A stretch of DNA of 64,000 bases from Candidatus Woesebacteria bacterium (GCA_050123235.1 JASFHL010000007.1:75-64074); one strand, 5' to 3'; positions 41,697 through 59,786 are shown, counted from the stretch's first letter. The notes: a model not told the origin generated them from the sequence alone. Program-made: numbers and translations.

Positions 41697-41731
41697 TTGA
41701 CTTTTTAGCAGTCTATAAGATATATTGCTAG
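41697..41731 (+). promoter_or_regulatory. promoter (TTGACT -35) overlapped by a CIRCE-like operator upstream of hrcA
   Basis: TTGACT at 41697-41702. TTAGCAGTC-TATAAGATA-TATTGCTAG at 41705-41731. A -10-like ATATAT sits within the spacer. Confidence 0.55.
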
Positions 41732-43004: not shown

Positions 43005-43040
43005 TTGCAAAAATTAGCAGTCTATGATTTACTCTGCTAA
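43005..43040 (+). promoter_or_regulatory. CIRCE-like operator with upstream -35-like TTGCAA, 250 nt upstream of dnaK
   Basis: TTAGCAGTC-TATGATTTA-CTCTGCTAA at 43014-43040. Confidence 0.55.
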
Positions 43041-43084
43041 TAGTCGTGATTGAATATAATAATAATTTATAAATTAGATTTTAA

Positions 43085-43241
43085 CATTTACTACAGATAA
43101 ATTTTGAAGCGTTGAAGTGAGGTCTGGCTAGGCTTGAAGTAGCAAGTAATTTACTACCGAACTTCACCGAGTGAGCCTTATGTTTAGAAAGATAACGAAA
43201 ATGTAGCAGCGAACGACTCCAAAATTTATCTGTAGTAAATG
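43085..43241 (+). repeat. family-A repeat, copy A4 (157 bp, 21-bp perfect TIRs CATTTACTACAGATAAATTTT) in the dnaK leader
   Basis: Perfect TIRs at 43085-43105 and 43221-43241. The core carries the compensatory pair GTTGAAGTGAGG / CCGAACTTCACC. Confidence 0.75.
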
Positions 43242-43292
43242 TGACACAATCTTATTTTTAATAAATGTTAAAACAAAATATAAGGAGAATAT

Positions 43293-45254
43293 ATGGCAAA
43301 CAAAACTACTGCTAAAATCATTGGTATTGATCTTGGAACCACTAATTCTGCTGTGGCTGTCATGGAAGCAGGTACAGCCAAAGTTATTCCAACAGCTGAA
43401 GGTCGCAATACTTTTCCTTCAATTGTTTCTTTCAAAGGAAAAGAAATCAAAGTTGGTGATCCAGCTAAACGCCAAATGGTGATGAATCCCAAGACTACTG
43501 TCCACTCAGTCAAAAGATTTATGGGTAGGCGTTTAAAAGATAAAGAAGTGCAAACTGCTATCAAAAATGTATCTTATGATATTGTGGAAGGTAAAGATGG
43601 CATGGCTGTGGTTGAAGTAGCTGGTAAAAAATATACTCCTCAAGAAATTTCTGCCAAAGTTTTATCTAAAGCTAAAGAGGATGCAGAAAGCTATCTGGGC
43701 TCCAAAGTTGAGCGAGCAGTGATTACTGTGCCAGCATATTTTGATGACTCCCAGCGTCAAGCTACCAAGCAAGCTGGTGAAATTGCTGGGCTGAAAGTAG
43801 AAAGAATTGTTAATGAGCCAACCGCTGCTGCTTTGGCCTATGGTTTGGATAAAAAAGGTAGCCAAACGATTGCTGTTTATGATCTTGGTGGTGGTACTTT
43901 TGATATTTCCATTTTAGAAATTGGAGACGGTGTTTTTGAAGTTAAATCTACCAATGGTGACACTTTTCTTGGTGGGAATGATTTTGATAATAAAATCATG
44001 GATTGGATTGTAGATGAATTTAAAAAAGAAACAGGCAAAGATCTATCCAAAGACCCACAAGCTATGCAGCGCATTAAGGATAGCGCAGAAAAAGCTAAAA
44101 TAGAGTTATCATCTTCTCAACAAACTGAGATCAATCAACCTTTTATTGCTCAAGGTGAAGACGGTCAAGCTTTACATCTTACCATGACACTCAGTCGTTC
44201 TAAGCTTGAAGAACTAGTTGATGATCTGATCAAAAGATCTATTACCCCGGTTAAAAAGGCACTCAAAGATGCCAAGCTAGATCCCAAAGATATTGACGAA
44301 GTGATCTTGGTTGGTGGTCAAACTAGGATGCCTAAAGTTCAAGAGGAAGTTAAAAAATTGTTTGGCAAGGAAGCACACAAAGGGGTTAATCCTGATGAGG
44401 TAGTGGCCATTGGCGCAGCTGTGCAAGCTGGCGTGATTTCTGGCGATGTTTCTGATGTAGTGCTTTTGGATGTCACTCCCTTGACTCTAGGTTTGGAAAC
44501 TTTAGGAGGAATTAGGACTCCTCTGATCGAGCGTAATACCACCATTCCCACCAGCAAGTCTCAGACTTTTTCAACAGCTGCTGATAATCAAACCCAAGTG
44601 GAAATTAATGTACTACAGGGCGAGCGCGAAATGGCTGCTGACAACAAAAGTTTAGGTCGTTTTTTCCTGGATGGTATTCCACCTGCTCCAAGAGGTGTGC
44701 CTCAAGTTGAAGTGGCCTTTGACATTGATTCCAATGGTATTCTGAACGTCACTGCTAAGGATAAAAATACTGGCAAAGAACAAAAAATTACCATTCAAAA
44801 CTCAACTAATTTGTCTGATGAAGAAATTGAAAAAATGAAAACTGACGCAGAAAAGCATGCTGAGGAAGATAAACAAAAGAAAGAGTTGATAGAAAGCAAA
44901 AACAAAGCCAATAGTGTTGCCTTTGAAATAGAAAAACAGCTCAAAGAATACGGTGATAAACTTGATGAAAAAGACAAAACCGCCATTGAAGAGAATGTAA
45001 AACAGCTCAAAGAAATGGCAGCCAAAGAGGACGCTAAAAAAGAAGAGTTGGATAAGGCTGTAGAAGAAACTCTCACTAGCGCTCAAAAAATTGGTGAGGC
45101 CATGCAAAAAGCACAAGCTACTCAGGCACAAGCAGGCGCTGGGGCTAAAGGTGATGATGCTGGTAAAGGCGGCAAAAAAAAGGCCAAAAAATCAGACAAA
45201 AAAGCTGCTGATGAGAAAAAAGATGCTGAAGAAGGGGAGGTAGTTGAAGAATAA
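43293..45254 (+). CDS. dnaK: chaperone DnaK (Hsp70)
   Basis: '[14 protein letters not shown]', 'DLGGGTFD' and a C-terminal 'EEGEVVEE'. Confidence 0.95.
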
Positions 45255-45432
45255 GGGGATGAGTTTGAGTTGATTTTCAAGATCAGCAAATTTAGCTGCA
45301 TATTGATCGTAATATTATTAGTTAAAAACTAACTTTAGCTGTGTCCCAATCAAAAACAGGATCAGCAGTTGCTTCTTAACTTTGCTTCATCCATCTCTGG
45401 TGATGCCTCAGCTATGCCTACTCTGCTTCTAA

Positions 45433-45753
45433 CTAATCTAAAAGTTGTTTTATCTCTGCTAAGGACTGCTCTACTTTGTCTTTATCTACATATTGTACTT
45501 TATTAGGAAAATACATTCTTTTTAACAAACGTTTTACCTTTAGCAAGGTATCAATCGCGGTTATGTCCAGACTAGCTATCTTTCCCTCATCACCATAAGG
45601 ATATAAACGCATAGCTATCGCTATAAAGCTGTCATATAATTCTCCCTAACCTTCCTGCCTATATAAAATGATGTTATTTACATAGTCATAAAAAAGATTT
45701 CTAAAAAAATCTTGAGCAGAATTGATTTCCCTTTGACGATCCATTTCTGACAT
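45433..45753 (-). pseudogene. ORF interrupted by a single in-frame TAG (possible degraded TA-island gene)
   Basis: Minus-strand reading 'MSEMDRQREINSAQDFFRNLFYDYVNNIILYRQEG*GELYDSFIAIAMRLYPYGDEGK...EIKQLLD*'. The stop is at plus 45646-45648. Frame continuity was checked by hand. Confidence 0.3.
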
Positions 45754-45825
45754 AAGTTATCCTTTCGGAGTTAAATTTTAAAAATTATTAATAGCTTGAT
45801 TATACTACAAAAAATTAGATGATTA

Positions 45826-46131
45826 TTGACATATAATTATACATATAATATTATGTTTTATATGAGTCTAATGCCAACCATCGTCTCAGCTAGGGACATT
45901 CAAAGGAATTATCGCAAGATATTTGACCAAGTTAAAAATTCTAATCCTATTTTTGTGTTAAACAACAATCAACCTGAAGTAGCTATTATTGATATTAAAT
46001 TACTTGAAAGGCTATATCAAAAAGCCAAAAGAACCGACTTGCTAGAAGCATTGCAAGCTGTTAATATCTATCAAAAAGAGAAACAACTTAAGAAACTCAA
46101 AAAACTAAATTCACTTCGAGACTTGACTTAA
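45826..46131 (+). CDS. type II antitoxin, Phd/YefM family
   Basis: 'TIVSARDIQRNYRKIFDQVKNSNPIFVLNNNQPEVAIIDIKLLERL' matches the Phd/YefM pattern. The true start is probably an internal Met. Confidence 0.6.
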   Translation: MTYNYTYNIMFYMSLMPTIVSARDIQRNYRKIFDQVKNSNPIFVLNNNQPEVAIIDIKLLERLYQKAKRTDLLEALQAVNIYQKEKQLKKLKKLNSLRDLT

Positions 46132-46189
46132 ATCATTTAGTCTAATTAGCTGCCCAATACTCAGATAATTTTTTAATCACATTCAATTA

Positions 46190-46456
46190 ATGAATATCCA
46201 TACTATCTACTATACAAGCCATTTTGCCAAAAAGTATAAAAAGCTCCCTGTGAGAATCAAAAAATTAGCAGAAAAAAAAGAAAAAGTTTTTAGAAATAAC
46301 CTTGCTGCAAAAATATTGAAAACTCATAAATTAACTGGAAAATTAAAAAATTACTATGCTTTTTCCATTAATCGAGAATACCGCATTTTATTTTGTTTTG
46401 AAAAAGATGGCAGTGTGACTTTTATTAATATCGGGACGCACGCGATTTATCAATAG
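46190..46456 (+). CDS. type II toxin, RelE/ParE superfamily
   Basis: 88 aa. 'FAKKYKKL...KLTGKLKNYYAFSINREYRILFCFEKDGSVTFINIGTH' matches the RelE/YoeB-like pattern. Lies downstream of the antitoxin. Confidence 0.6.
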   Translation: MNIHTIYYTSHFAKKYKKLPVRIKKLAEKKEKVFRNNLAAKILKTHKLTGKLKNYYAFSINREYRILFCFEKDGSVTFINIGTHAIYQ

Positions 46457-46554
46457 GCTGGTCCATTGTTAATACTCTTTCAGAGTAAGCTGTTTATTTC
46501 AGCAACATTTAAACATCCTTTGCCTTGCTCTAAATTAGCTTGTAAACTAAAAGC

Positions 46555-48120
46555 ATGAAGCATAAACAAGCTTTGTTTGGTTTGTTGCTAGTTTTAAAAA
46601 AAGAAAAAAAATTAATTGCTATTTGTTTTGCTCTCTGTGCGCTTTTTCTTTTTCTTAGAATTTATAAACTTACTAGCTCATTTGAGCTGTTTGCTGATAT
46701 CGGACGTGATTTGCATGTCTTGATGTTGATGGTGATTGAAAAAAAACCACCTCTTTTAGGGCCGAGTACTAGCTGGCTGCCCATTAACCAAAGCCCAATA
46801 TATTTTTATATGCTTGTGCCGATTTTCTTACTTAGTGGCTTTTCCGGCTTTACTGTTCAGCTTACAGTTTTTGCCTTGTATTTAGTTTTTTTTGTGCTGG
46901 GAGTTTTATTTTTGCGACAGGATAAATTACTCTTAGCTGTGTTACTGGTAACAGCTTTACTGCTGACTATGCACCCAGAAGTTGTTTTACAAACTAGGTT
47001 ACCATGGAATCCTTCATTTGCTCCGCCTTTTTTACTCATGAGTATTTTTGTTTTAGTTTTGTTGCGGCAGAAATTTAGTCAATTAAAACTTTTTTTCCTA
47101 AGCTTGGGTTTGGTAATAGCAATTGCCTTGAGTTACTCCAATTTTCCAATCTTATCTTTGTTTTTTCTGTATTTGCTTTTCTCGTTTAGAAAAAATAGAC
47201 AGAGAATCTTGTCACTTTTTAGCAGTTTTTTCGTTTCTTTTTTGATTGCTTTTTTGCCAATTCTGATTTTTGAACTCAGAAATAAATTTTTCTTTTTCAA
47301 GCGTCTGACTATGGACGAACCATTTTTGATGAAGCCAAAAATTGATTATTTGCAAAAACTCACTTTATTTTTGAAATATTTAGGAGGTAGTTTTTTACCA
47401 GAGATGAATAGCTTAGTACTGCTAGTCATGTTTTTAGCCTTGTTGATTAATTTAATTTTGATCAAAGGACAATGGTGGCATAATTTTTTAAACAGAAAAA
47501 ACAAAAATGCTAAGGCAGCTAAGAAAGTTAGCAAGAACAAAGCTGTGAAAAAAACTAATTTTTCAGAACAAGATCAGTTATTTCTTTTCTTTTTAAAATT
47601 CTTCTTATTAATCTTTTTCTTTACTCTGCTGATGCCATTTAAGATTATGGCTCATTATATTTTTGCCACTTTGTGCTTGCTGTTTGTCACTTTGGCTTTA
47701 ATCAGGAAAGAACTGCTTTTGCCGTTGCTAGTAATTTTAGCCTTAATTTGGTTGCGACCAAGACAAGTCATTTTTTATACTGCCCCAGCCAAAAGGACAG
47801 TAGCTCAACTAGAAGCTTGTGCTAAAAAAGTTTGTCAAATAGAAAAAGAGCCGCTCTTTGTAACAGTGCAGGCTTGGTATCATTATCATTTTGCACCAGA
47901 TCATATTTTTTTCATGAATAAACATGGTTGCCAAGCTAGAGATATCACACAAAGTCCGGGCTTTGCTAATAAAATGGCCGTAGTCTCTGATCAATCAAAG
48001 TATGAACATGGTAAAACAGCTTTTAATGAGTTGACTTTATTTGGTGAGTCTGAATTGATGTTAGAATATCATTGCGAGGGTAATATTAGTATCTATATAT
48101 TAGAGAGGGTAGCAGAATAG
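46555..48120 (+). CDS. GT-C-like polytopic membrane protein (paralog 1)
   Basis: More than ten TM helices with an N-terminal periplasmic loop. 'LGPSTSWLPINQSPIYFYMLVPIF' is shared with paralogs 2 to 4. Confidence 0.45.
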   Translation: MKHKQALFGLLLVLKKEKKLIAICFALCALFLFLRIYKLTSSFELFADIGRDLHVLMLMVIEKKPPLLGPSTSWLPINQSPIYFYMLVPIFLLSGFSGFTVQLTVFALYLVFFVLGVLFLRQDKLLLAVLLVTALLLTMHPEVVLQTRLPWNPSFAPPFLLMSIFVLVLLRQKFSQLKLFFLSLGLVIAIALSYSNFPILSLFFLYLLFSFRKNRQRILSLFSSFFVSFLIAFLPILIFELRNKFFFFKRLTMDEPFLMKPKIDYLQKLTLFLKYLGGSFLPEMNSLVLLVMFLALLINLILIKGQWWHNFLNRKNKNAKAAKKVSKNKAVKKTNFSEQDQLFLFFLKFFLLIFFFTLLMPFKIMAHYIFATLCLLFVTLALIRKELLLPLLVILALIWLRPRQVIFYTAPAKRTVAQLEACAKKVCQIEKEPLFVTVQAWYHYHFAPDHIFFMNKHGCQARDITQSPGFANKMAVVSDQSKYEHGKTAFNELTLFGESELMLEYHCEGNISIYILERVAE

Positions 48121-48125
48121 AATTT

Positions 48126-48860
48126 ATGTCAGAAATAGAAACCATCCAAGAACCACAAAATTATCAAGAAGCTAAAGAATTCTTGATCAATTCAAGTCAT
48201 CCTAGAACTCATGCTGGTAAAGATACTAGAATTGCTCTCTTGAATAAAGTTTATGAAGGGGAAAGAGAAACTGTTTATGCAAAAATGCTTCAACAATATT
48301 TAAAAAAAGCATTTGAAGATAGAAGACGAGGCACAATTTTTCATTTATTGGAATTTCCAGAAACACGCAGATTAATGCTCATTAAAGCAGATAAAGATCG
48401 TTTCCCTAGAGAAATGTATGCAGAGGAAGTAAAAATTTTTCCCAGTGAATTATTGCCCTTTTTCCGTAATTATCTTGAAAGAATTGAAAGCTACTGCCAG
48501 GATCTCGATCCAAACACAGAGCGAGATGCAGAAGTAAAAACTCGAGTAGAAGAATTATTATTGGCAATTTTAAATAAACAAATTCCTGATACTAATTTTA
48601 CGCTTTATAAATTTTTATTTGATCATTTCAGGAGGAGTGATACTTCTCTAGATGAAACAAAAGGTGTTATTTATGATTATATAAGCTTGCCACTCAGTAA
48701 TTTAATTTTAGAAATAAAAAGTCATGCTGAAGATAGAAAATATCAAATGGCTAAAAGAGCCAGAATTATTTCAGAAGATCAATTTAGAAGAATAAAAACA
48801 TGGGAAGATGCTGATAGACAAAAAGGGTTACTACGAGCTAGACAAGCTAGGCTGCGCTAA
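48126..48860 (+). CDS. hypothetical soluble protein within the glycosyltransferase island
   Basis: 244 aa, R/E-rich and helical. Confidence 0.4.
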   Translation: MSEIETIQEPQNYQEAKEFLINSSHPRTHAGKDTRIALLNKVYEGERETVYAKMLQQYLKKAFEDRRRGTIFHLLEFPETRRLMLIKADKDRFPREMYAEEVKIFPSELLPFFRNYLERIESYCQDLDPNTERDAEVKTRVEELLLAILNKQIPDTNFTLYKFLFDHFRRSDTSLDETKGVIYDYISLPLSNLILEIKSHAEDRKYQMAKRARIISEDQFRRIKTWEDADRQKGLLRARQARLR

Positions 48861-48933
48861 GCCGCTAAGTAAGTATAAAATCTCGCAGTCGCTAGTTGTT
48901 AAGATCTAAGCTCAGGCATTACAATATTGCTAA

Positions 48934-50745
48934 ATGAAAAATAAAAAAGTTTCTCATCTTTTACAAAAAATTTTTCCAAAGAGCAAAAAATTTAAATTTT
49001 TTTTCAAAAAGGGTCTTTCTTGCCCTTTTTTAAAGAGATTTAGCTCATACTTTGCTATCTTTTTTTTGGTCGCGTTTACAGTAGCTCTTCGTTTTTTACC
49101 AATCTCCACAGGCAATTTTTCTTTTATGTATGATAATGCTAAGGATTCCCTGCTGATTCGCAGAATAGGGGTGCAACATAAACCCGCTTTATATGGAGCT
49201 GTCACTAGTATTGATGGAGTTTATAATGGACCACTTTGGTATTACTTAGCTCTACCTCTCAATTGCTTGCTTAATTATCACCCCATGGCTAGTATTTTGA
49301 TGGTGATTGTTTTGGCGGTTCTGTCTGTTTTAATTTTGTATTTTTCACTGGGTTTTTTTGAAGCATTTCTTTATGCCATCTCTTTTGGTCTAATTGCCAG
49401 TCAGCAATCGGCTTGGACGCCATACATGACGCCATTTGTGCTTTTACTAATTCTCTTAATTTTTTTAAGTTTTAAGTCAGAGTCTAAAAACAAACAATCA
49501 AAGTTTAAAAAAATTTCTAGTTTTTCAGGATTGATAAAATCTAAGCTGCTTAGGCTAGCTAGCCCCTTCCGCGCACTAAAAAAATTTAAATATCGATCTT
49601 TATGCCAAGCTTGTTTTGAGCAGCAAACTCTCAAATTAGCTAGTATTTTTTTACTCACATCTTTTGCTTTCCATTTTCAAACAGCCTATGGCATGGTTTT
49701 ATTACCCACGGTTTTAATTTTACTTTTTGTTTTAAAGATCAGACCAAATTCAAAACAAATTTTAATTAGCTTGCTGGCTTTTCTGATACCATTCACTCCT
49801 TTTTTTATTTTTGAACTTAGAAATGACTTTCATCAGAGCAAAGCAATTTTGCATTTTATCAAAGATTATAAAAATCAAGCTCAAGTGATTAATCCTAACC
49901 AAAAGGGTTTAGCCAGATGGGGAGAAATAGCAGGCTATATCTATCAAAGTAGCTGGCAAGCTTTAGCTCCAGCAGAAATTCCAGCTTTGGGTTGCTTGGG
50001 GGTGATGGGGATTTTTATATATTTGCTTGATCGCTGTTTATTGCGAAGATCAGTAGATAGATTTGAAGGGAAAATCTTTGCTGTTTTTATTTTAAGTCCA
50101 CTTATTTTTTATCAAATTTTACCTTGTAAATCATATTACCTAGTTGCCTTAATGCCAGTCTGGATTATTTTTTTTGCTAAATTTATTAGGGCTTATTTTG
50201 CTAAAATTCTACCGTTGCTAATAATTTTATTCACTGGGGTAGCTTTAATTAATTTAAGCCAAAGTCTTGATCATTACCAATTACTTGCTCAAACAGAATC
50301 TTTTCCATTCTCAGCTAAACTAGCTGCAGTTAAAAAAGTTTATCAATTAAGTGAAGGTCAAAAATTTAGTTCCTATCATTTTGTGCCAGAAGTATATGAT
50401 TACACTTACCAGCAAATTTATTTGTATTTGATTGACCAGGATTATCCAGAGCCTTTGGAGTTTAGCTATGCGCCAGGTGAATTTACTTATATGAGACCAC
50501 AGTATTTACCTTTGCAACCGCCTAAATTGCAAAAACAAGATAGTAGCCAAGCGGATGACTCCATGATGGCAGAAAATATCGAAACATCAAACTTAGTATT
50601 TTTAATTGTTGAGAAATATTACAGCCAAGAGGTTTTTAATCAATGGTGGCAACGAGTGAGTGCTGATTTGGAAATTTTGGAAAGTTCTCAAATTAATGAT
50701 GCGATTAGGGTTTATAAAGCGAGGAGGGTACAAATAAATGAGTAG
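48934..50745 (+). CDS. GT-C-like polytopic membrane protein (paralog 2)
   Basis: 'KPALYGAVTSIDGVYNGPLWYYLALPL' aligns with paralogs 3 and 4. Has a large C-terminal soluble domain. Confidence 0.45.
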   Translation: MKNKKVSHLLQKIFPKSKKFKFFFKKGLSCPFLKRFSSYFAIFFLVAFTVALRFLPISTGNFSFMYDNAKDSLLIRRIGVQHKPALYGAVTSIDGVYNGPLWYYLALPLNCLLNYHPMASILMVIVLAVLSVLILYFSLGFFEAFLYAISFGLIASQQSAWTPYMTPFVLLLILLIFLSFKSESKNKQSKFKKISSFSGLIKSKLLRLASPFRALKKFKYRSLCQACFEQQTLKLASIFLLTSFAFHFQTAYGMVLLPTVLILLFVLKIRPNSKQILISLLAFLIPFTPFFIFELRNDFHQSKAILHFIKDYKNQAQVINPNQKGLARWGEIAGYIYQSSWQALAPAEIPALGCLGVMGIFIYLLDRCLLRRSVDRFEGKIFAVFILSPLIFYQILPCKSYYLVALMPVWIIFFAKFIRAYFAKILPLLIILFTGVALINLSQSLDHYQLLAQTESFPFSAKLAAVKKVYQLSEGQKFSSYHFVPEVYDYTYQQIYLYLIDQDYPEPLEFSYAPGEFTYMRPQYLPLQPPKLQKQDSSQADDSMMAENIETSNLVFLIVEKYYSQEVFNQWWQRVSADLEILESSQINDAIRVYKARRVQINE

Positions 50746-50774
50746 TTATAAATATTATAGATAAGTATTTACAT

Positions 50775-50931
50775 CACTTAGTATATTATTAAACTAGGAA
50801 CCTTGAAGCGAAGTCATAAAAGAAAAGAATAAGATATAAGTAAGGACTGAGCTTCAGAGAAAAAGCTTTGTAGTGATGATTAAGCATTTAGCTTACTGCG
50901 ACTGTGTCTTAGTTTAATAATATACTAAGTG
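50775..50931 (+). repeat. family-B repeat, copy B2 (157 bp)
   Basis: Near-identical to B1 and followed by the A-type module GTAGCGAACGACTCTAAGATTTAT. Confidence 0.75.
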
Positions 50932-51002
50932 AAACAGCATACTATTCTGTAGCGAACGACTCTAAGATTTATTGCTATTGAGTTTTCAACAGTTTCCTTA
51001 AT

Positions 51003-52679
51003 ATGAAAAAAAGGATTAAATTACCAACAATTAATCTGTCCCGCAGAGAATTATGCTTATTCTTTTTAATTTTTTTACTGGGTTTAACTTTACGCCTCTA
51101 TCCTGGTCGTGATCACTACATTTGGTTTTACGACCAGGCTCGTGATCGCGCAGTCATTCAGTCTATCATTGAAGATAAAAATTTAGTTTTGTTGGGGCCA
51201 GCTACTTCTAAGTGGGGACTGTTTCATGGGCCATTATTCTATTATTTTTTAGCTCCCTTTTATTTTTTATCTCAAGGAGATACATTTTTAGCAATCTGGG
51301 CAATGATTTTGTTCAATTTATCAGCCATGATTCCTTTGGCACTCTTAACTTTTGCTCTTTTTAAAAATAAGAAAATAGTTTATTTATCTTTGTTTTTCTT
51401 TGCTATTTCTTATGAAATGATCGAATATGCTCGCTGGCTAACTAATGTTTCGATGGCCATTCCTTTTTTACTGTGGGCTTTTTACTTTGCTTATCGAATC
51501 AGACCTGATTTGTCTGAGCGAGAAATAATTAGCTATTTTTTAGGAAAAAGCAAATTACTTCCACAGAGCATTGCTAATCTTGTTCAACAGAAAAAAACAG
51601 TTTTACTGCCTATTTGTTTTGCTATCTCTCTAGGTTTAGCAATTCAAAGTGAGATTTTTTTAATTTATTTGATCCCTTTTTTCTTGCTATATTTTTTCTT
51701 GATTCATTTGTCTTTGCGCAAAATTCTACTATCAGCTTTGACTTTGATCTTAACTTTATCTCCTTTGGTTTTAGCGGAGTTTAAATTTTCCTTTCAGATG
51801 AGTAAAAGTTTTTTTCAGCAACTTTTGCAGACTGGAGCAGAAACTAGATTCTTTGTCAAAGAATCACTCTTAAAATATTTTGAACGGCTAGCTCTGAGTG
51901 CCCAACTTAATTTGTTTGGGCTGCCTTTAACTATGAGTTTTTTCATCTTATTAGTTACTTTTACTGCTGTTGTCTATTTTATGCGGCGAGAATCAGATAG
52001 AAATAAAAAAACTCTCTATTTTCTATTCTTTTTCTTATTTAGCCAAATAGTTTTATTTATTTTTCCCTTTGTTGATAGAATTTATTTAAATTTAACAGTA
52101 GGCATGTTGCTGATTATTTTAGCGGCTTATTTTTTGAACAAACTAATGCAATCTAAATTTGCAGCTTTAGCTAAACTAATACTGCTGTTATTTTTTTTAT
52201 TGCAAATTTTTCAATTGCGCAGCAATACTTTGGGTAAAACTCCTTTTAGTAAATATGAATCAACTTCACCAGCTTATATAATGTCTAGCTATTTTGCAGT
52301 GCTTGATAAAATTTATGAAGAAGCTGAAGGTGAGAAGTTTAGTATTGCAGTTTTGGCTAATCCTTATGGAGTACGTACCACTTGGGCTGGCATTTTTCAG
52401 ATTTATTTTAATAGAAAATCACTAGCAAATGAAGATCCGCCCACTTGGTTTGGCTACCATGCTAATGGTTACTGGGAGGATGATTACTTTCCCACTCTTG
52501 ACTATCCTCAAGACCTGCATTTTTTAATTATTTATCCGCAGTCTGATGGATTTTTGCCAGCACCGATTCTAGAAGAGTTTTTTGAGCAGCAGGATGACGC
52601 AACCTTGAAAATATCTGAGTATAATATTGATGAGATTATGGTGGAAAAGAGAATTAGAAAAGCAGAAATAGATAAATAA
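51003..52679 (+). CDS. GT-C-like polytopic membrane protein (paralog 3; ArnT/PMT-like topology)
   Basis: 'IWFYDQARDRAVIQSIIEDKNLVLLGPATSKWGLFHGPLFYYFLAPFYFLSQGD' near the N-terminus and 'WFGYHANGYWEDDYF' near the C-terminus. Confidence 0.5.
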   Translation: MKKRIKLPTINLSRRELCLFFLIFLLGLTLRLYPGRDHYIWFYDQARDRAVIQSIIEDKNLVLLGPATSKWGLFHGPLFYYFLAPFYFLSQGDTFLAIWAMILFNLSAMIPLALLTFALFKNKKIVYLSLFFFAISYEMIEYARWLTNVSMAIPFLLWAFYFAYRIRPDLSEREIISYFLGKSKLLPQSIANLVQQKKTVLLPICFAISLGLAIQSEIFLIYLIPFFLLYFFLIHLSLRKILLSALTLILTLSPLVLAEFKFSFQMSKSFFQQLLQTGAETRFFVKESLLKYFERLALSAQLNLFGLPLTMSFFILLVTFTAVVYFMRRESDRNKKTLYFLFFFLFSQIVLFIFPFVDRIYLNLTVGMLLIILAAYFLNKLMQSKFAALAKLILLLFFLLQIFQLRSNTLGKTPFSKYESTSPAYIMSSYFAVLDKIYEEAEGEKFSIAVLANPYGVRTTWAGIFQIYFNRKSLANEDPPTWFGYHANGYWEDDYFPTLDYPQDLHFLIIYPQSDGFLPAPILEEFFEQQDDATLKISEYNIDEIMVEKRIRKAEIDK

Positions 52680-52697
52680 TGGTAAATTTAATTAATT

Positions 52698-54269
52698 ATG
52701 CAATCAGTCAAAAATTTAACTAAGATAGAAATATTAATTTTGGTTTTCATTGTTATTCTAGGAATTTTTATAAGATTAATTCCAGGAAAAGGTCATTTCA
52801 TTTGGGATTATGATCAAGCAAGAGATTCTTTTGAAATTAGAAAAATTATTCAAAACAAAGATCTAATTTTAATTGGCCCACAAGCTGAAAAACATGGAAT
52901 GTTTCACGGGCCGTTATATTATTATTATTTGGCTCCTTTTTACTATCTTTCTCATGGTGATCAAAATTTACCTCTGTTAGCTATGATTTTTTTAAATTTA
53001 TCTAGCATTATTCCTCTGGCTTTATTAAGCAAACAATTATTTTCTAAACTTGGTTCAAAACAAAGTAAGTTGATCACGTTCTTAGTTATTTTTTTATTCG
53101 TAATTTCTTATGAACAAGTTGAATACGCTCGCTGGTTATCTAATGTTTCAATTACCATTCCACTTTTAGCATGGAGTTATTATTTTATTTGGAAATTGTT
53201 TAGCAGCAGAAAATATGCTTTTTATTTAGGCTTATCATTGGGTTTGGCAATTCAAGGAGAAATTTTTCTAATCTATTTAATTGCATATTCGTATCTATTA
53301 TTGCTTTTAAATAGACATAAAATAAAGGATTGGATAAAATTTCATTTTGGTCTAGCTGTTGGCCTATTACCTTTAATTCTTGCGGAATTAAAATTTAATT
53401 TTCAAAGCACAAAAACTTTTATCAATTATTTTATTAATCGTCATAGTGTAGAAGATTTATCAGCTGGACAGTCAATTCTAAGTTATTTAGATCATATGGG
53501 TTTTACTGTTAAGAATAATTTATCTGGTTTTTCAAACTCATTTGGTCTTTATTTTTTAATCCTGATATTAATTTTATATTTATTTTGGAAGAGAGATATT
53601 ACAAAACTGAAAATTAAGAAAGAAATTGCTTATATTTTCATTTGGCTTTTTTCTCATTTTATTCTTTTCTCATTTCATTTTGTTGATGCAGTATTTCTGA
53701 ATTTAGGCATAGGCTTAAGTATGATTTTTTTAATGTCATTTTTAATCTATTTATTTTGCTACAAAAAACAAAAAATCATGGCTTCTTTATTTTTGATTTT
53801 TGTAGTATTTATGCAAATCAGATTGTTAATGGTTAATACTCATCATAATCAACCATTTAATAAATTTAAGTTTGTTCAAAAAGATGCAATTCTTTTTAAA
53901 GAAAAGATAGCAATTGTTGATCAGATATATCAGTTAGCCAATAATGAGTCATTTACTTTTGCTGTTTTAGGAACACCTTATGGTGTAAGAACAAAATGGG
54001 CCAGTGTTTTTGAACAATATGCCAGACAAAATGATGTTGAGATACCACATTGGTTTGGCTACTATGCCAACGGCTATCCAGGGGAAAAACTGTTTATAAC
54101 TCAAGATTTTCCAGAACAAAAACATATTGTCTTAATCGAATCAAGTCAACACTTAATTGATCCTTACACCAGAAAAAATTATCTAATAGAGCAGGATAGA
54201 ACAACGAGATTGATAGAGGAAAAGGAATTGTATGGTCATAGAATTCAGTTGCGGGAGAGAAAAGAGTAA
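52698..54269 (+). CDS. GT-C-like polytopic membrane protein (paralog 4; tandem duplicate of paralog 3)
   Basis: 'IWDYDQARDSFEIRKIIQNKDLILIGPQAEKHGMFHGPLYYYYLAPFYYLSHGD' and 'WFGYYANGYPGEKLF' are collinear with paralog 3. Confidence 0.5.
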   Translation: MQSVKNLTKIEILILVFIVILGIFIRLIPGKGHFIWDYDQARDSFEIRKIIQNKDLILIGPQAEKHGMFHGPLYYYYLAPFYYLSHGDQNLPLLAMIFLNLSSIIPLALLSKQLFSKLGSKQSKLITFLVIFLFVISYEQVEYARWLSNVSITIPLLAWSYYFIWKLFSSRKYAFYLGLSLGLAIQGEIFLIYLIAYSYLLLLLNRHKIKDWIKFHFGLAVGLLPLILAELKFNFQSTKTFINYFINRHSVEDLSAGQSILSYLDHMGFTVKNNLSGFSNSFGLYFLILILILYLFWKRDITKLKIKKEIAYIFIWLFSHFILFSFHFVDAVFLNLGIGLSMIFLMSFLIYLFCYKKQKIMASLFLIFVVFMQIRLLMVNTHHNQPFNKFKFVQKDAILFKEKIAIVDQIYQLANNESFTFAVLGTPYGVRTKWASVFEQYARQNDVEIPHWFGYYANGYPGEKLFITQDFPEQKHIVLIESSQHLIDPYTRKNYLIEQDRTTRLIEEKELYGHRIQLRERKE

Positions 54270-54400
54270 GTTTGTTTTTAGAAGCTAGACGTTTGATTAA
54301 ATATGGTCACCAGGTAAAGTAGGCCTTGAATGAGTTCCTGTCTTTCAAACTATAACAGTTGGCAGCTCCATTTATACTGAATTTTGCTATACTAAAACTC

Positions 54401-55090
54401 ATGAAACTATCTGTCATCGTTCCCGTTTATAATGAAGCGGCTACCATTGCGGAAATTCTTAATAAATTAGTCAAAGTCAAGGACGTTTATGAAATTATTA
54501 TTGTTAATGACGGCTCTACTGATCACAGTCTCCAAATTATTGAAAAAACGAAAAAAGAATTAGGCAAGCTTAAAGCTAGAAAGATCAAAGTTTTTGACAA
54601 AGAAAATGGAGGCAAGGGTAGTTCAGTCCGTTTAGCTTTGACTAAGGTCACTGGAGATTATGTTTTAATCCAAGATGCTGATCTGGAATATGACCCTGAT
54701 GATATTGCTGCTTTATTGGAGCCGATCAAAAAAGGCAGAGTTGAGGTGGTTTATGGCTCTCGTTTTTTAGGTCCACATTCCAATCTTTTGTTTTGGCACA
54801 AAGTTGGCAATACTTTTTTAAATTTAGTGGTAAATATACTCTACGACACCACGCTTTCTGATATGGAGACTTGTTATAAAGTTTTACCCACTAAGCTCTT
54901 TAAGGAACTTGATATTAAAGCAGCTAAATTTGATTTAGAACCAGAAATTACTTGTAAAGTTTTAAAAAAAGGTATCAGGATTTTTGAAGTACCAATTACT
55001 TATATAGGGAGAGATTTTTCTGAAGGTAAAAAAATTACTTGGAAAGATGGCTTTTCAGCTTTGTGGACTATTATCAAGTTGAGGTTTTAG
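54401..55090 (+). CDS. GT2 polyprenol-phosphate glycosyltransferase (DPM1/GtrB/ArnC-like)
   Basis: 'MKLSVIVPVYNEAATI', 'IIVNDGSTDHS' and 'LIQDADLEYDP' (DxD). The start is set at the ATG at 54401 rather than the TTG at 54359. Confidence 0.75.
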   Translation: MKLSVIVPVYNEAATIAEILNKLVKVKDVYEIIIVNDGSTDHSLQIIEKTKKELGKLKARKIKVFDKENGGKGSSVRLALTKVTGDYVLIQDADLEYDPDDIAALLEPIKKGRVEVVYGSRFLGPHSNLLFWHKVGNTFLNLVVNILYDTTLSDMETCYKVLPTKLFKELDIKAAKFDLEPEITCKVLKKGIRIFEVPITYIGRDFSEGKKITWKDGFSALWTIIKLRF

Positions 55091-55101
55091 TGCCACTTAA
55101 A

Positions 55102-57216
55102 ATGAAAAATTTGTTAAATTTATATGATTTAATAATACTGAACATGTCCTACCCGTTATTTAGTATTTCATTCATCCTACATTTCTTACTCTTCATCTTA
55201 GCTTTGTTTTTTTCTCTTTATTTACCAGGGTCTTTCTTTATCAATTCTCTTTTTTCTAAAAGCAAAGTTCCTCAATTAAAAAAATATAGCGCCTTACTCA
55301 AACTGGTTTCATCTTTGGTTTTGGGATTAGTGTTATGGACAGCTCAAGGTGTATTTTTTGGCTATTTACGATTGAGAAATCTAAGTTATCTTTATATAAT
55401 TTTTTTCTTTTTAGCTTTTTTGTGGCAAAAAAAACCCAGTTTGAGCAAAATTTTTGTTGCCGCAAAAGCAATTGGCAAAAATTTTAAATCAATCAATCCT
55501 GTTGTTTTAATTTTTCTAACAATTGGCTCTTTTTTGCAACTCTTAGTGATCAGTGGCTCTGGCTTTTTGAGTGAGCAAGGAATTAAGTTTTATTTTGATA
55601 ATGCAGCTGAACCGATCATGCATTTAGCCTATATCCAAGCTTTGATTCGTAATTTTCCAGCAATAGAACCTGGTTTAGCAACAGTGCCTTTGCTTAATTA
55701 TCATTATTGGTCAGATTTTTTTATGGCCGAACTAGCTAGAGTTTGGCAATTACCAGTTATTCATCTCTATTTTCATTTTTTACCCCCGCTACTCGCTATC
55801 TTGAGTAGTTTTTTGATTTATTTGATTGTTAAAGCATGGCGAGGTACTGATTTAGTGGCTTTTTTAGCTTTGTTTTTCTTTTTCTTTGGGGCTGATGCTG
55901 CCTATACTATTTATTTTTTACTTCACCGACAACTTAGTTTTCATGTTGCTGGGATTGATAATGGCATGGAACAGTTTTTCAATTCACCTCATGTTTTTGC
56001 CAAGCTGATTTTTTTGGCAAGTTTACTGGTTTTATTTTTCTGGCAAAAGCTGAGTTCAAAACAAAGAAGCCTAGATAAAAAATGGGGCTTACTTTATTTG
56101 ACTTTAGCAGCTCCTTTAGTTGGTTTTAAGGTTTATTATGGTATTTTTTCAGCTATTGCTTTGTCAGTGCTGGTAGCTGTTAGAGTTTTGAAAGCTATCT
56201 ATAAAAAAGACTGGCGAAACTGGCGTTCAATTTTTCTCCAAGAAAAATTTTCACTGTTTTTATTGTTTTTATTCGCTCTAATTTCGGCGACTATTTATTT
56301 TCCAACTAATAGCAGTGCTGGCGGCCTATTTTTCATTCCATTGGAATGGCCGAAATTGTTATTAGCGCCACACAATTTAGATTTTAATGATTGGTTTCTT
56401 CGTCAACAGGTCTATCACGCTGCTGGAAATATTCGCAATTTACTAATTCTGGACTTTTTGGCAATATTAATTGCTTTGATTAGTATTCATGGCACAAGAT
56501 TAATTGGTTTTTTGCCCACCAAAAAATTGGCTAAAATTCTGGGATTTGAATATTTACTTTACTTATTAATTCCTAGCATTATTTTCACTATTGCTGGTTT
56601 TTTTACCCTGCAACAGTCAGGCGCTTTTAATGTGTTTAATTTTTTTATTGTCAGTTTAATTGTTTTTAGTTTTTTTGCTGCCTTTAGATTGGCAGATTTT
56701 TTAAAGTCAAAAAACTTTTTCCTAAAAATTCTGGCTGTGTTGATTATAATTTTGACAGTCCCCAAATCAACTCATGCTCTTTATTTAGCCGCCACAGAAC
56801 TGAATGATGCAGAAGCACAGATCTTGGTTAGTAAAGTTGAACTAGAAGCTTTTATAAAATTACGCAGTCTTTTGCCAGCAACGGCAGTTGTCCAATCTCA
56901 TCCTAAAAATAGCTTAGACCAAGACACACCTTATTTATCTTTTTTTCTTAATAGACAAAGTTATTCAGCTGGTTTCAATCTATTGGAGAATCTGGGCAAA
57001 GCTAATTTAGAAAGAAAAACTAATTTAGAAAAAATGTTTTTAACTGAAGATGCTACCAGTCTAGCCAGTGAGATGAGGCAGCGTGGTATAGATTACCTTT
57101 ATTTACAAAAAAAGCCAGCTCAAAAGCTGAATTTTGATTTAGCAAAAAGTGATAATATATTTAAAGTGCTTTATGAAGATGAACTAGTGCTGGTAGTGGG
57201 TCTTGCAGAACAGTGA
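55102..57216 (+). CDS. large polytopic membrane protein, YfhO/GT-C-like
   Basis: About 700 aa with more than 12 TM helices. Immediately downstream of the GT2, as in CsbB/YfhO and GtrB/GtrC pairs. The start is set at Met 55102. Confidence 0.4.
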   Translation: MKNLLNLYDLIILNMSYPLFSISFILHFLLFILALFFSLYLPGSFFINSLFSKSKVPQLKKYSALLKLVSSLVLGLVLWTAQGVFFGYLRLRNLSYLYIIFFFLAFLWQKKPSLSKIFVAAKAIGKNFKSINPVVLIFLTIGSFLQLLVISGSGFLSEQGIKFYFDNAAEPIMHLAYIQALIRNFPAIEPGLATVPLLNYHYWSDFFMAELARVWQLPVIHLYFHFLPPLLAILSSFLIYLIVKAWRGTDLVAFLALFFFFFGADAAYTIYFLLHRQLSFHVAGIDNGMEQFFNSPHVFAKLIFLASLLVLFFWQKLSSKQRSLDKKWGLLYLTLAAPLVGFKVYYGIFSAIALSVLVAVRVLKAIYKKDWRNWRSIFLQEKFSLFLLFLFALISATIYFPTNSSAGGLFFIPLEWPKLLLAPHNLDFNDWFLRQQVYHAAGNIRNLLILDFLAILIALISIHGTRLIGFLPTKKLAKILGFEYLLYLLIPSIIFTIAGFFTLQQSGAFNVFNFFIVSLIVFSFFAAFRLADFLKSKNFFLKILAVLIIILTVPKSTHALYLAATELNDAEAQILVSKVELEAFIKLRSLLPATAVVQSHPKNSLDQDTPYLSFFLNRQSYSAGFNLLENLGKANLERKTNLEKMFLTEDATSLASEMRQRGIDYLYLQKKPAQKLNFDLAKSDNIFKVLYEDELVLVVGLAEQ

Positions 57217-57240
57217 ATAATTTAGCTATGTTTCTATTAT

Positions 57241-59712
57241 ATGAATATGTTTAGTAATTTTAAACAAATAAAGTTTAATATGAAACTCCTTCGACAGCCT
57301 TATTTTAAATTTGCTTTGATATTTTTAATTTTATTGGGCATCCGTTTTTACCCAATTTTTTTTCAAAATAAGAGTTTATTTTTTGGCGACAACTATGCTT
57401 TGATGGTGCCTGGAAAAATTTTTACAGCCCGCTGGCTAAGGCATGGCGTTTTGCCTTTATGGAATCCAACGATTTTAGCTGGTATCTCTTGGATTGGGGA
57501 TGTAAATCAATCTATTTTGTATCCTAGCACTTTATTTTTTGTTTTTTTGGAAGCAAGCACTGCATTAACAGTAACTGTTATCAGTCATTTGCTGATTTCA
57601 GTGTTAGGCATGTATTACATCGTATTACAATGTATACAGAATAAGAAAAACACTAAGCAAGTTAATTTAGTTAGCAATAAACAATCAATCTCTTTTTTAT
57701 CCGCCTGTCTGTGGGTTTTTTCCACTCAGCTCACTAACTCAATTAATAATATTTCAATGCTGCAGTCATTAGCTTGGCTGCCATGGCTGGTTTTCTTAGC
57801 TTTTAAAATTAGGAAAAACTTAAAAAATAAGTTTTTATTTGCCATAGTAGTTTTTTTACAATTTGCTGGTGGTTATCCGCAACATGTGATTTATGGCATC
57901 TTGACAGCAGTTTTGATTTCTAGTTTTTATTTTTTTCAGCCTCAACTTACTGCTAAGAAAATAAAAATTTGGCTAAATCATTGGTCTATAACAGCTCTTT
58001 TTACTTTACTATTATCAGCAGTTATTTATTTGCCATTTCTCGAAACTCTGTTAAATTCCACCCGCACTTTACAAACAGAAACACAAGCAGTGTCTGGTTC
58101 ATTGCATCCGATGGAATTAATTAAAATGCTGCTGCCTTATTTTTTTGAAAGCCCACATGATGGGATGCGTTGGGGGCCGATGTGGAACAGCATGCCCAAC
58201 GTAACAATTTATTTCACTGGCTTTGCTTTTTTGATGTTGCTACTTTCTTTGCTTAATAAAAAATTAAGAGACTCGGAAATTAAATTTTTTGCGCTATTCC
58301 TTTTTTTAACTTTAATTTTAGCTTTAGGAAAGTATTTACCTTTTTTTGCTACTTTGCAGCAGATTTTGCCTATCTTTAAAATTACCAGAGGGCCGAGCTT
58401 GATTTTAACTGTCAGTACTTTTGTGGCAATCACTTACTTAGGTTTGGCTTTGACAAAAATTATATCAAAAACTAAAAACTCTAAAACTAAATTTCGATTT
58501 CTTACTAAGATCAATTTTTTAAGTAAATTGCCTGTTTTCAGTAAAAATGCTGGGCGAATTTTTTCTTTTTTTCTTTTTTTAATACTGATCATATTTTTAA
58601 GTTTATCCCTCTTAGCTAAATTCAATTTTAACTTAGTTTGGGATTTAGCTAATAGAATGGGTAACAATTTTTTAATCAACAGTGCTTTTCATAGTTTTGA
58701 AAAAGATCAGATAATTTTGAAGGTGATTAGTCAAAATGTTTTATTTAACTGTATTTTCTTTTTGATCGCAGTTTTAGCTTGGCAAAGAAAAAGGATTTTA
58801 TTACTGACTTTAATTTTGTCTCTAGACATGATTTACAACACTCAAGGCATGCTCTTTTTTGCCCCGCGAGATATTTATCCATCGTGGCAAGAGATAGAGA
58901 CAGCTAATCCGATTTTTAGTCAAACAAATAATTATCGTTATTTGATCCGCAACTACAATTATCCTTATACAGATTTTGGTGCTTATTGGGAGGCTTTGCT
59001 AGTTAGAAAACCATTTTCTGATTCTTATATTGATGAAGAAGAATTAGCTAGTTACAAAAATCTAAAGCGTTTTGCTAAAGGTATGACCCCTGATTGGAAT
59101 ATACCCTTTTTATTGCAGTCAATTAATGGTTACACCACGCTTTTACCCAAAGACAGTCATCAGTTATGGAATCCAGATCAGGAGACAAGAATTAATAATT
59201 TGGCAGAAATTAAATTAGATAATCCATTACTTAAAAAGTGGGCAGTTAAATTTTATTTAGTGGATGATTGGTTTTTTGTAAATGAAGATTTGTCTTCCTT
59301 AGCAGTTATTTATGAAAAAGATTGGTGGCAAGTTTATGAATTGCCAGCTCTACCAAGGTTTAGATATGAAGACGATACAGCTATCAACTTTGACCAAGAC
59401 CATATTGAGAATCCTAATTTTATCTCGCTGAAATTCAATAATGATAGCAGTCATAGTCACTTATTAATTGCTGATCGCTATGATAAAAATTGGCGGGCTT
59501 GGGTGAATGGTCAAGAAGTTGAGATTGAAAATTTTGAAAGGATGAGAAAAGTTAAAATTACAGCTGGTAAGAATCAGGTAGTATTTAAATATCAGCCAAA
59601 GTTGTTTTATTTGGGAGCTGCTATCTCTATTTTAAGTTTTTTAGCAGTCTCCTTATTCATCTGCTTAACATTTTTTATTTTCCCTGTTAAAATTAAACGC
59701 GTTGCCAAATAG
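57241..59712 (+). CDS. large polytopic membrane protein, YfhO-like
   Basis: 823 aa with many TM helices, an extracytoplasmic C-terminal domain and a final TM anchor. Confidence 0.4.
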   Translation: MNMFSNFKQIKFNMKLLRQPYFKFALIFLILLGIRFYPIFFQNKSLFFGDNYALMVPGKIFTARWLRHGVLPLWNPTILAGISWIGDVNQSILYPSTLFFVFLEASTALTVTVISHLLISVLGMYYIVLQCIQNKKNTKQVNLVSNKQSISFLSACLWVFSTQLTNSINNISMLQSLAWLPWLVFLAFKIRKNLKNKFLFAIVVFLQFAGGYPQHVIYGILTAVLISSFYFFQPQLTAKKIKIWLNHWSITALFTLLLSAVIYLPFLETLLNSTRTLQTETQAVSGSLHPMELIKMLLPYFFESPHDGMRWGPMWNSMPNVTIYFTGFAFLMLLLSLLNKKLRDSEIKFFALFLFLTLILALGKYLPFFATLQQILPIFKITRGPSLILTVSTFVAITYLGLALTKIISKTKNSKTKFRFLTKINFLSKLPVFSKNAGRIFSFFLFLILIIFLSLSLLAKFNFNLVWDLANRMGNNFLINSAFHSFEKDQIILKVISQNVLFNCIFFLIAVLAWQRKRILLLTLILSLDMIYNTQGMLFFAPRDIYPSWQEIETANPIFSQTNNYRYLIRNYNYPYTDFGAYWEALLVRKPFSDSYIDEEELASYKNLKRFAKGMTPDWNIPFLLQSINGYTTLLPKDSHQLWNPDQETRINNLAEIKLDNPLLKKWAVKFYLVDDWFFVNEDLSSLAVIYEKDWWQVYELPALPRFRYEDDTAINFDQDHIENPNFISLKFNNDSSHSHLLIADRYDKNWRAWVNGQEVEIENFERMRKVKITAGKNQVVFKYQPKLFYLGAAISILSFLAVSLFICLTFFIFPVKIKRVAK

Positions 59713-59786
59713 AGTGAAATTAGCCAAGGTGCTATTTCGAGATTCAATTTAATAACAAGTCTACTAATCAGCATTGAAATTTACCT

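Follow-up and report, generated by a model that had tools for sequence, protein, structure and literature searches.

The dnaK–dnaJ spacer of a Woesebacteria genome is probably a flexible surface-glycan locus

Introduction

In Gram-positive bacteria, extracytoplasmic polymers are glycosylated by a scheme in which a glycosyltransferase of the GT-A fold makes an undecaprenyl-phosphate-linked sugar (C55-P-sugar) that is exported by a flippase, after which a glycosyltransferase of the GT-C fold such as YfhO transfers it to the polymer (PMC8035078, PMC5836110). Named components are CsbB/GtlA for the GT-A enzyme, GtcA/GtrA for the flippase, and YfhO/GtlB for the GT-C enzyme; the systems decorate teichoic acid and polysaccharide, and a cytoplasmic GT-A enzyme without transmembrane (TM) segment is a described variant, the GacI type (PMC8035078, PMC5836110). 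Here, we analyze a locus of a Candidatus Woesebacteria bacterium in which seven glycosylation genes, one for a family 2 glycosyltransferase (GT2) and six for polytopic membrane proteins, lie between dnaK and dnaJ, both of them heat-shock genes. The locus is part of a stretch of 64,000 nucleotides (nt) with a GC content of about 33% (GCA_050123235.1 JASFHL010000007.1:75-64074), hereafter called the window, whose genes were assigned with Pfam. The ArnC/ArnT and GtrB/Gtr* pairs operate in the same way as the Gram-positive systems. Like the latter, the window encodes a GT2, whose sequence matches polyprenyl-phosphate sugar synthases at class level, beside GT-C proteins, one of which matches the Pfam family YfhO. 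Unlike them, it holds six GT-C proteins of three families per one GT2, Pfam lacks a model for two of these families, the acceptor is putative, and neither a GtrA/Wzx flippase nor a GacJ-like partner is encoded in the window.

The O-antigen rfb and pneumococcal cps loci are flexible glycan islands. Exposed glycans are likewise encoded by flexible genomic islands such as the O-chain island fGI6 of Alteromonas macleodii (PMC3542563). The dnaK–dnaJ spacer shares with such islands its conserved housekeeping flanks, differing glycosyltransferase cargo, host-like composition, and the lack of an integrase. It differs from them in its heat-shock flanks, in the vertical inheritance suggested for GT2 and YfhO, and in that the variation was seen between species-level lineages. 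As a system, the locus is of an ordinary type, a flexible glycan locus with a GT-A/GT-C system, and not a new kind.

In Firmicutes, as in the class I heat-shock genes of Bacillus subtilis, hrcA, grpE, dnaK, and dnaJ form an operon under the repressor HrcA and its operator, the controlling inverted repeat of chaperone expression (CIRCE), whose textbook half-site is TTAGCACTC. The window has the same gene order, an HrcA repressor gene, and CIRCE-like repeats upstream of hrcA and groES. In contrast to the Firmicutes operon, its half-site is the variant TTAGCAGTC and not TTAGCACTC, dnaK and dnaJ are each preceded by a separate CIRCE, HrcA has only 239 amino acids (aa), DnaJ lacks a zinc finger, and dnaK and dnaJ lie up to 14.5 kb apart.

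Results

The dnaK–dnaJ spacer carries different cassettes between conserved flanks

The comparisons below lead us to regard the dnaK–dnaJ spacer as probably a flexible surface-glycan locus encoding lipid-carrier-dependent extracytoplasmic glycosylation, of which the window holds the most expanded version seen. The interval between the two genes (45255–59786) measures 14,532 nt, in agreement with the separation of about 14.5 kb between hrcA-grpE-dnaK and dnaJ reported in the initial annotation, and both flanks are confirmed by Pfam. The left flank consists of hrcA (41735–42454, plus strand; PF01628, E 1.6e-17), which encodes a short form of 239 aa, grpE (42438–42968, plus strand; PF01025, E 6.1e-26), and dnaK (43293–45254, plus strand; HSP70, E 2.8e-256). 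On the right, dnaJ (59787–60641, plus strand) encodes a J domain (PF00226) and a DnaJ_C domain (PF01556) without zinc finger and is followed by nusA, infB, and rpsO. The contents described earlier, a toxin–antitoxin pair, a disrupted open reading frame (ORF), a family-B repeat, and seven glycosylation genes, were all recovered, together with an eighth block ORF absent from that inventory (48126–48860, 244 aa). All genes of the block are encoded on the plus strand, with a degenerate minus-strand ORF as the sole exception, and the block contains no unassigned coding space.

Loci around DnaJ relatives were taken from GTDB genomes, JGI metagenomes, and an assembly index, and the window proteins were mapped onto them. 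The window shares a conserved backbone with its relatives, which reads FtsH, 5′-3′ exonuclease, GT4, GH39 (minus strand), hrcA, grpE, and dnaK on one side of the spacer and dnaJ, nusA, infB, rpsO, and PNPase on the other. Its HrcA is 68–74% identical to the orthologues of L002, L082, L087–L090, L171, and L172 (locus handles), its DnaK is 78–84% identical to the copies of relatives, and DnaJ identity across Patescibacteria is 65–74%. In the outgroup Patescibacteria L003, L007, L009, L010, L011, and L062, as well as in many other phyla of the same scan, dnaK and dnaJ are adjacent, in line with the premise that the two genes are normally contiguous in many bacteria. Because the outgroup has them adjacent, the occupied spacer is the derived state; at the level of synteny, the ancestral order is shown to be hrcA-grpE-dnaK-dnaJ-nusA-infB.

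Ten Woesebacteria relatives, whose DnaJ is about 68–72% identical to that of the window, were compared in detail (GT-C types are named after the length in aa of the window protein). The smallest spacer, in L088, spans 0.33 kb (331 nt) and contains no gene, followed by 0.9 kb with one 277-aa ORF in L085, 2.6 kb with a 603-type GT-C and a DUF3800 gene in L089, and 2.7 kb with GT2 and a methyltransferase in L090. The spacer of L082 (3.5 kb) holds a 603-type and a 523-type GT-C, that of L083 (3.7 kb) a carbamoyltransferase and others, and those of L171, L172, L002, and L087 (3.7–4.5 kb) contain GT2, a methyltransferase or 181-aa ORF, and YfhO; in L171 and L172, GT2 starts about 120 nt past dnaK. 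With 14.5 kb, the window has the largest version among the loci compared. Further, in the distant L092 (DnaJ identity 53%), a 504-aa member of the 558-aa GT-C family lies between dnaK and dnaJ. At least 11 relatives with seven content types share an identical flank order. This synteny comparison, with conserved flanks and a spacer content that differs between relatives, bears out the suggestion of the initial annotation that a hypervariable locus is maintained at this site. The block of the window looks like a union of two cassettes, 603/523-type and GT2…YfhO, each shared with a different subclade of relatives, to which the tandem 558/523 genes, the second-family GT-C, the fourth paralogue, the orphan gene, and the toxin–antitoxin pair are added.

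The slot between GT2 and YfhO is occupied by the 725-aa GT-C gene in the window and by an ORF of 181–201 aa in relatives (positions in the respective loci: L002 5729–6274; L087 7021–7566; L090 9317–9922; L171 7061–7606; L172 7037–7582). A Pfam scan of four of them (L087, L090, L171, L172) identified a protein with a class I S-adenosylmethionine-dependent methyltransferase domain, which suggests glycans with methylated sugars in the relatives and a cassette swap in the window. The dnaJ–nusA spacer is a second variable spot: it contains no gene in the window, L171, and L083, and one to three unrelated ORFs in L082, L085, L087, L088, L090, and L172, reaching up to 4 kb (L090). On the other side, GT4 and the divergently oriented GH39 (window 38548–41355) precede hrcA in most Woesebacteria relatives examined. 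Because these two genes are conserved there, the heat-shock genes sit among glycan-related genes even where the spacer is empty.

The block encodes a candidate lipid-sugar synthase and GT-C enzymes of three families

The GT2 gene (54359–55090, plus strand; PF00535, E 6.7e-33), with a probable start at 54401, encodes a candidate polyprenyl-phosphate sugar synthase of the GT-A fold. Its best match in the PDB is the dolichol-phosphate mannose synthase of P. furiosus (5mlz; E 4.5e-14, residues 13–228), followed by ArnC and GtrB, and it carries a DAD (DxD) motif. At class level, the sequence places it in the dolichol-phosphate mannose synthase/ArnC/GtrB group, with a putative donor sugar and lipid acceptor. 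Orthologues with 64–69% identity (tblastn) are found at the same site in L002, L087, L090, L171, and L172.

The six membrane proteins of the block are predicted GT-C glycosyltransferases of three sequence families. The fold is predicted for two of them by structural models, the 521-, 603-, and 523-aa proteins are paralogues of the modeled 558-aa protein, and for YfhO it is suggested by Pfam. A description as six paralogues was rejected, as profile comparison gives three families with no detectable relation in sequence: the 725-aa and 558-aa families show no profile similarity (9.6% probability), and the YfhO protein has no detectable profile relation to either the 558-aa or the 725-aa family. 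In Pfam (E ≤ 10) and NCBIfam, the 521-, 603-, 558-, 523-, and 725-aa proteins and the 244-aa orphan yielded only noise. Neither single-sequence nor profile searches with the 558-, 725-, and 823-aa proteins gave a useful match in the sequences of the PDB; fold comparison alone worked.

The largest family has four members. Its central protein is the ArnT/PMT-like 558-aa paralogue (51003–52679, plus strand), for which a word-indexed database search found only 18 homologues; six of the 18 aligned family members match PF13231 (PMT_2; best E 1.2e-8). An AlphaFold2 model built on the family alignment (pLDDT 86.4, pTM 0.87) has ArnT as its top Foldseek match in the PDB (5f15, E 1.8e-7, TM 0.55), with AglB/STT3, Pmt4, Pmt1-Pmt2, ALG9, DPY19, and AftB among the others. 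The significant matches are GT-C enzymes that use lipid-linked sugars (polyprenyl phosphate or diphosphate), except for a chain of the glycosylphosphatidylinositol transamidase (9ub7_B, E 0.02), while unrelated folds appear in the list from E ≥ 0.07 with low probability. D44, R47, and D48 are invariant across the 18 members. In the model, they lie at the start of helix 43–57, directly after TM1 (14–32), a position that would correspond to the one where GT-C enzymes carry catalytic acidic residues. The D-x-x-[RK]-D motif is kept in all four paralogues, including the most divergent one, the 521-aa protein (46555–48120, plus strand), which has D-x-x-R-D after TM1 ('ADIGRD') and aligns to the 558-aa family profile with 97.2% probability in hhalign (E 4.4e-11, 266 columns). 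The 603-aa paralogue (48934–50745, plus strand) aligns with 98.6% probability (E 6e-16, 409 columns) and in L082 and L089 the same site holds homologues of 35–38% identity. The 523-aa paralogue (52698–54269, plus strand) is 36% identical to the 558-aa product over the full length (E 5e-101) and 40% identical to a gene at the same site in L082; the 558/523 pair is a tandem GT-C duplicate in the window.

The second family is represented by the 725-aa protein (55039–57216, plus strand; 690 aa from the NCBI start at 55144). Its 690-aa AlphaFold2 model (pLDDT 90.9, pTM 0.92) matches DPY19 best in the PDB (Foldseek, 7zlh, E 2.7e-8), and also STT3/AglB/PglB, AftA, and ArnT; for the 558-aa and 690-aa models alike, the GT-C structures are matched at E 1e-7 to 1e-8 with a probability of 1.0. 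Conserved positions of the 690-aa protein include D156, D251, and an NYHYWS segment. At E ≤ 1e-5, a search with the 725-aa sequence returned 49 homologues, all of them without a Pfam domain. A source is named for a few and is then Woesebacteria, Roizmanbacteria, or Patescibacteria; one homologue sits in an ordinary glycan cluster away from dnaK and dnaJ. The third family is that of the YfhO protein (57241–59712, plus strand; 823 aa, 810 aa in NCBI), which matches PF09586 (E 7.5e-12) in its C-terminal part only and has orthologues of 40–47% identity at the same site in L002, L087, L171, and L172.

The cell-wall GT-C sets of mycobacteria (EmbA/B/C, AftA-D) draw on one lipid-linked donor, and AftA, AftB, AftD, and EmbA-EmbB are among the fold matches of the window proteins. 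Similarly, the GT-C paralogues of the window could share one polyprenyl-phosphate sugar donor for building or decorating glycans of the envelope. Unlike the mycobacterial sets, they show no sequence-level relation to these enzymes, come without a decaprenylphosphoryl-arabinose-type donor pathway in the window, and are much smaller.

The core of the block is probably an old resident

In GC content, GC3, and tetranucleotide content, the block does not depart from the range of the backbone. Its synonymous codon-usage distance (2.43) exceeds that of 98.8% of random gene sets and compares with 1.46–2.42 for the backbone, whose most deviant contiguous stretch reaches 2.42. Because the block is almost entirely membrane protein, we treat this deviation as undecided. 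Of the compositional signs of foreign origin that had been proposed for inspection, base composition is host-like, and codon use is marginally deviant (2.43 versus at most 2.42). Integrase, transposase, and tRNA genes are absent from the block, and there are no direct repeats at 45255 or 59786; the recombinases of the window (25416–27176 and 32920–33789) lie 12–20 kb away.

The identity matrices of GT2 and YfhO give a ranking of the genomes identical to that of the DnaK and DnaJ matrices, with L087/L172 closest to each other, then L171, then L002 and L090, and the window most distant. Because the matrices track DnaK/DnaJ, the GT2…YfhO core appears to have been inherited vertically at this site. 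In a neighbor-joining tree of HrcA+DnaK+DnaJ, GT2-bearing loci group together, as do 603-type loci, and the empty L088 is nested beside the GT2-bearing ones, which implies loss. For at least part of the block, the sequence evidence thus favors a core that is an old resident and not a recent foreign insertion; the remaining genes are lineage-specific gains or differential retentions. The initial annotation had set against its own island reading the case of relatives that carry the same conserved genes with host-like composition: this is found for the GT2/YfhO core, whereas the content of the rest varies. An inserted glycosyltransferase island is therefore too strong a description, given the absence of mobility genes, the host-like composition, and a core that diverges in step with DnaK/DnaJ. 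As possible island borders, the family-B repeat pair (41490–41700, 50753–50948) was rejected, as it brackets hrcA through the 603-aa gene and not the block.

dnaK and dnaJ have separate CIRCE-like operators

The CIRCE-like pattern TTAGCAGTC-N11-CTGCT occurs four times in the window compared to none in 100 shuffles. The sites are located upstream of groES in the confirmed groES-groEL pair (22337–22363), of hrcA (41705–41731, plus strand; TTAGCAGTC-N9-TATTGCTAG), where a promoter-like TTGACT-18-TATATT overlaps the operator, of dnaK (43014–43040, plus strand; TTAGCAGTC-N9-CTCTGCTAA), and of dnaJ (59641–59667, plus strand). The dnaJ operator falls within the final codons of the YfhO ORF, at a distance of 120 nt from dnaJ, which is also preceded by a promoter-like TTAACA-17-TAAAAT with TG (59665–59693). 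In eight relatives (L002, L082, L083, L088, L089, L171, L172, L003), a CIRCE is found 35–39 nt upstream of dnaJ, even in L088 and L003 with their gene-free dnaK–dnaJ spacers. Consensus scans for promoters and terminators (41.3–61 kb) did not rise above the shuffled expectation, with 76 versus 69.7 promoter-like and 15 versus 11.7 terminator-like sites, and were used as local hints only.

A heat-shock operon split by insertion, one of the two options of the initial annotation, agrees poorly with hrcA, dnaK, dnaJ, and groES each having an own CIRCE-like operator. The separate CIRCEs before dnaK and dnaJ, conserved in the eight relatives, rather argue for several transcription units, and the regulon is probably not functionally split. 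With dnaJ under its own putative HrcA-controlled promoter, the spacer would lie between transcription units and therefore tolerate cargo. The class I heat-shock 'operon' of this clade would then consist of separate CIRCE-controlled units with room for cargo in between.

Discussion

The following model starts from the family and fold assignments and the observed variability of the locus; the lipid-linked nature of the donor, the acceptors, the direction of sugar transfer, and the cause of selection are inferred. At the inner membrane face, the soluble GT2 would use a nucleotide-activated sugar to charge polyprenyl phosphate, and a flippase not encoded in the window would turn the lipid-linked sugar outward. 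There, the six GT-C enzymes would transfer the sugar to differing extracytoplasmic acceptors (wall polymers, S-layer proteins, or pilins), so that a single donor synthase would supply all six, which would differ in acceptor or linkage. Cassettes could be exchanged, lost, or duplicated by homologous recombination via the highly conserved dnaK and dnaJ flanks, and phages or the interaction with a host or partner plausibly select for the resulting diversity of surface glycans.

Several observations weigh against this model. The GT2 has no TM segment, and its best NCBIfam match, AglJ, scores 125.8 at a cut-off of 325, all equivalog scores being far under their cut-offs. Neither the block nor the 64-kb window encodes a GtrA- or Wzx-type flippase; the sole small hydrophobic ORF of the window is a VIT-like protein (8602–9075), and a flippase gene may lie in another part of the genome. 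The relatives are a small sample from among the matches listed in both collection scans. Only near-identical copies (L001) or relatives at about 75–82% backbone identity were found, and strain-level replacement, by which classical flexible islands are recognized, was not observed, all relatives being separate species-level lineages. An exact 24-mer of the dnaK 3′ end retrieved no JGI metagenome contig, and a DnaJ-profile scan of metagenome contigs gave, among the matches listed, distant relatives of ≤54% identity, of which L092 alone was informative. Additionally, the neighbor-joining tree is rough and without support values, and the codon use at the upper edge of the backbone makes a partly foreign origin of some block genes possible.

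A recently acquired mobile island, with glycosyltransferases and toxin–antitoxin genes integrated into the heat-shock operon, would account for the toxin–antitoxin pair and degenerate ORF at the left edge of the block, which are typical island cargo, for the absence of counterparts of the left five genes at the site in any relative compared, and for the codon-usage distance above 98.8% of random gene sets. Nevertheless, we consider it quite improbable: integrase, transposase, tRNA, and flanking direct repeats are missing at 45255/59786, GC, GC3, and tetranucleotides stay within the backbone range while backbone stretches reach a codon distance of 2.42, and GT2/YfhO orthologues occupy the same site in five relatives, diverging in step with DnaK/DnaJ. 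The arrangement might also be an artefact of assembly or binning, a chimeric contig that joins a glycosylation cluster to chaperone genes. Multi-copy repeats (41490–41700, 43080–43250, 50753–50948) can mis-join, the independent contig L001 breaks at the family-B repeat, and no independent contig was found across the left junction from dnaK to the toxin–antitoxin genes; an exact look-up of the 521-aa product found none, the start codon probably being called differently. Yet L001 (SRR11698124) covers 50.8–63 kb at 99.6–100% protein identity, with the right junction YfhO-dnaJ-nusA at 100% identity in this independent assembly; a Logan contig likewise carries the genes for RelE, the 603-aa protein, and the orphan, and of the other genomes, four share the adjacency of GT2…YfhO and dnaJ and five that of dnaK and GT2, which makes an artefact hardly credible.

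A functional coupling of the glycosylation cassettes to heat shock, by co-transcription with dnaK under HrcA/CIRCE or by joint action with Hsp70/DnaJ, is compatible with the variability of the locus. The block genes are co-directional with dnaK without a terminator-like site in between, the short dnaK–GT2 distance of about 120 nt in L171 and L172 would fit, a GT-C of the 558-aa family resides in the spacer even of L092 with its DnaJ identity of 53%, and GT4 and GH39 are conserved beside hrcA. We judge such a coupling unlikely, since the spacers of L088 and L003 are gene-free and those of L083 and L085 hold unrelated genes, a homologue of the 725-aa GT-C is found in an ordinary glycan cluster elsewhere, and the toxin–antitoxin pair with an own promoter-like site and a minus-strand remnant intervene between dnaK and the cassettes; the promoter and terminator scans, being at chance level, decide nothing. 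There is a similarly slim chance that residence of GT-C genes in the spacer is not incidental and that their expression with the HrcA/CIRCE regulon could couple glycosylation of envelope or secreted proteins to proteotoxic stress. In the eukaryotic endoplasmic reticulum, O-mannosylation of unfolded proteins by protein O-mannosyltransferases works alongside Hsp70, and a GT-C/heat-shock coupling, if true, would be loosely analogous.

Bacteria of the candidate phyla radiation are found attached to other cells, and their genomes measure about 1 Mb; to our knowledge, their surface chemistry is almost unknown and their envelopes are uncharacterized. As a flexible surface-glycan locus, one lipid-sugar synthase with six GT-C enzymes over 14.5 kb would be a large investment in surface decoration for a genome of ~1 Mb. 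The dnaK–dnaJ spacer could serve as an easily located marker to compare the surface-glycan diversity of Woesebacteria, and two structurally supported, unannotated GT-C families without Pfam model are added.

Left end of the block, hairpin repeats, and neighboring elements

The left end of the block begins with the degenerate frame that had been listed as a disrupted ORF (about 45436–45753, minus strand; six-frame translation). It has an in-frame stop after codon 35 and more stops downstream, matches no Pfam family at E < 0.01, and has no homologue in any related locus; we regard it as an unproven candidate pseudogene, alternatively as chance ORFs. It is followed by a candidate Phd/YefM-type antitoxin gene (45826–46131, plus strand; PF02604, 30.0 bits at a cut-off of 29.8), whose true start is probably the ATG at 45862, with a promoter-like TTGACA-17-TATTAT (45826–45854, 11 of 12 positions matching) beside it. 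After a gap of 58 nt, in the order antitoxin then toxin, comes a candidate RelE/YafQ-type toxin gene (46190–46456, plus strand), which scores 27.2 bits for YafQ (cut-off 30), 22.8 for HigB, and 21.0 for YoeB, all three under their cut-offs, and is named RelE/StbE family by NCBI.

The soluble 244-aa orphan (48126–48860, plus strand) starts 6 nt past the stop of the 521-aa GT-C gene and has the lowest GC3 of the window (0.18). It has no match in Pfam or NCBIfam and found only itself among 1.84 billion (1.84e9) representative proteins; we take it for a genuine orphan gene or, alternatively, for an accessory of the GT-C genes that evolves rapidly.

Two families of hairpin repeats occur in the window, and both are absent from all related loci and without Rfam match. 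Family B (about 200 nt, with 42-nt inverted arms) has copies at 41490–41700 and 50753–50948 and a partial copy at 8569–8623. The block copy (50753–50948, 196 nt) is 89% identical to that upstream of hrcA, which stops 4 nt short of the hrcA CIRCE and whose RNA fold has a z-score of -4.67. Because the independent contig L001 starts inside the block copy, family-B repeats appear to break assemblies. Family A is intergenic, about 170 nt long with 72–82% identity between copies, and folds into a single long hairpin (-53 kcal/mol, z -6.55). Its copies are located at 43080–43250, 18617–18766, 22121–22252 (inverted), and 15112–15200 (inverted), and a 22-nt fragment (50951–50972) abuts the family-B repeat of the block. 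One copy separates the dnaK CIRCE from the start codon of dnaK, and a second is located upstream of the groES CIRCE at a distance of 85 nt; in all, an A or B repeat occurs within 100 nt of three of the four CIRCE sites. Family A could be an element resembling miniature inverted-repeat transposable elements or a leader structure.

Further upstream in the window, a tRNA-Met pair (25131–25205, minus strand; 25359–25428, plus strand) abuts a large serine recombinase (25416–27176, minus strand), after which come a weak Rep3-like initiator (27436–28092, minus strand) and a tyrosine recombinase (32920–33789). This tRNA-Met/recombinase/Rep3-like region may represent an element that integrated there, or what is left of it, without relation to the dnaK–dnaJ block.

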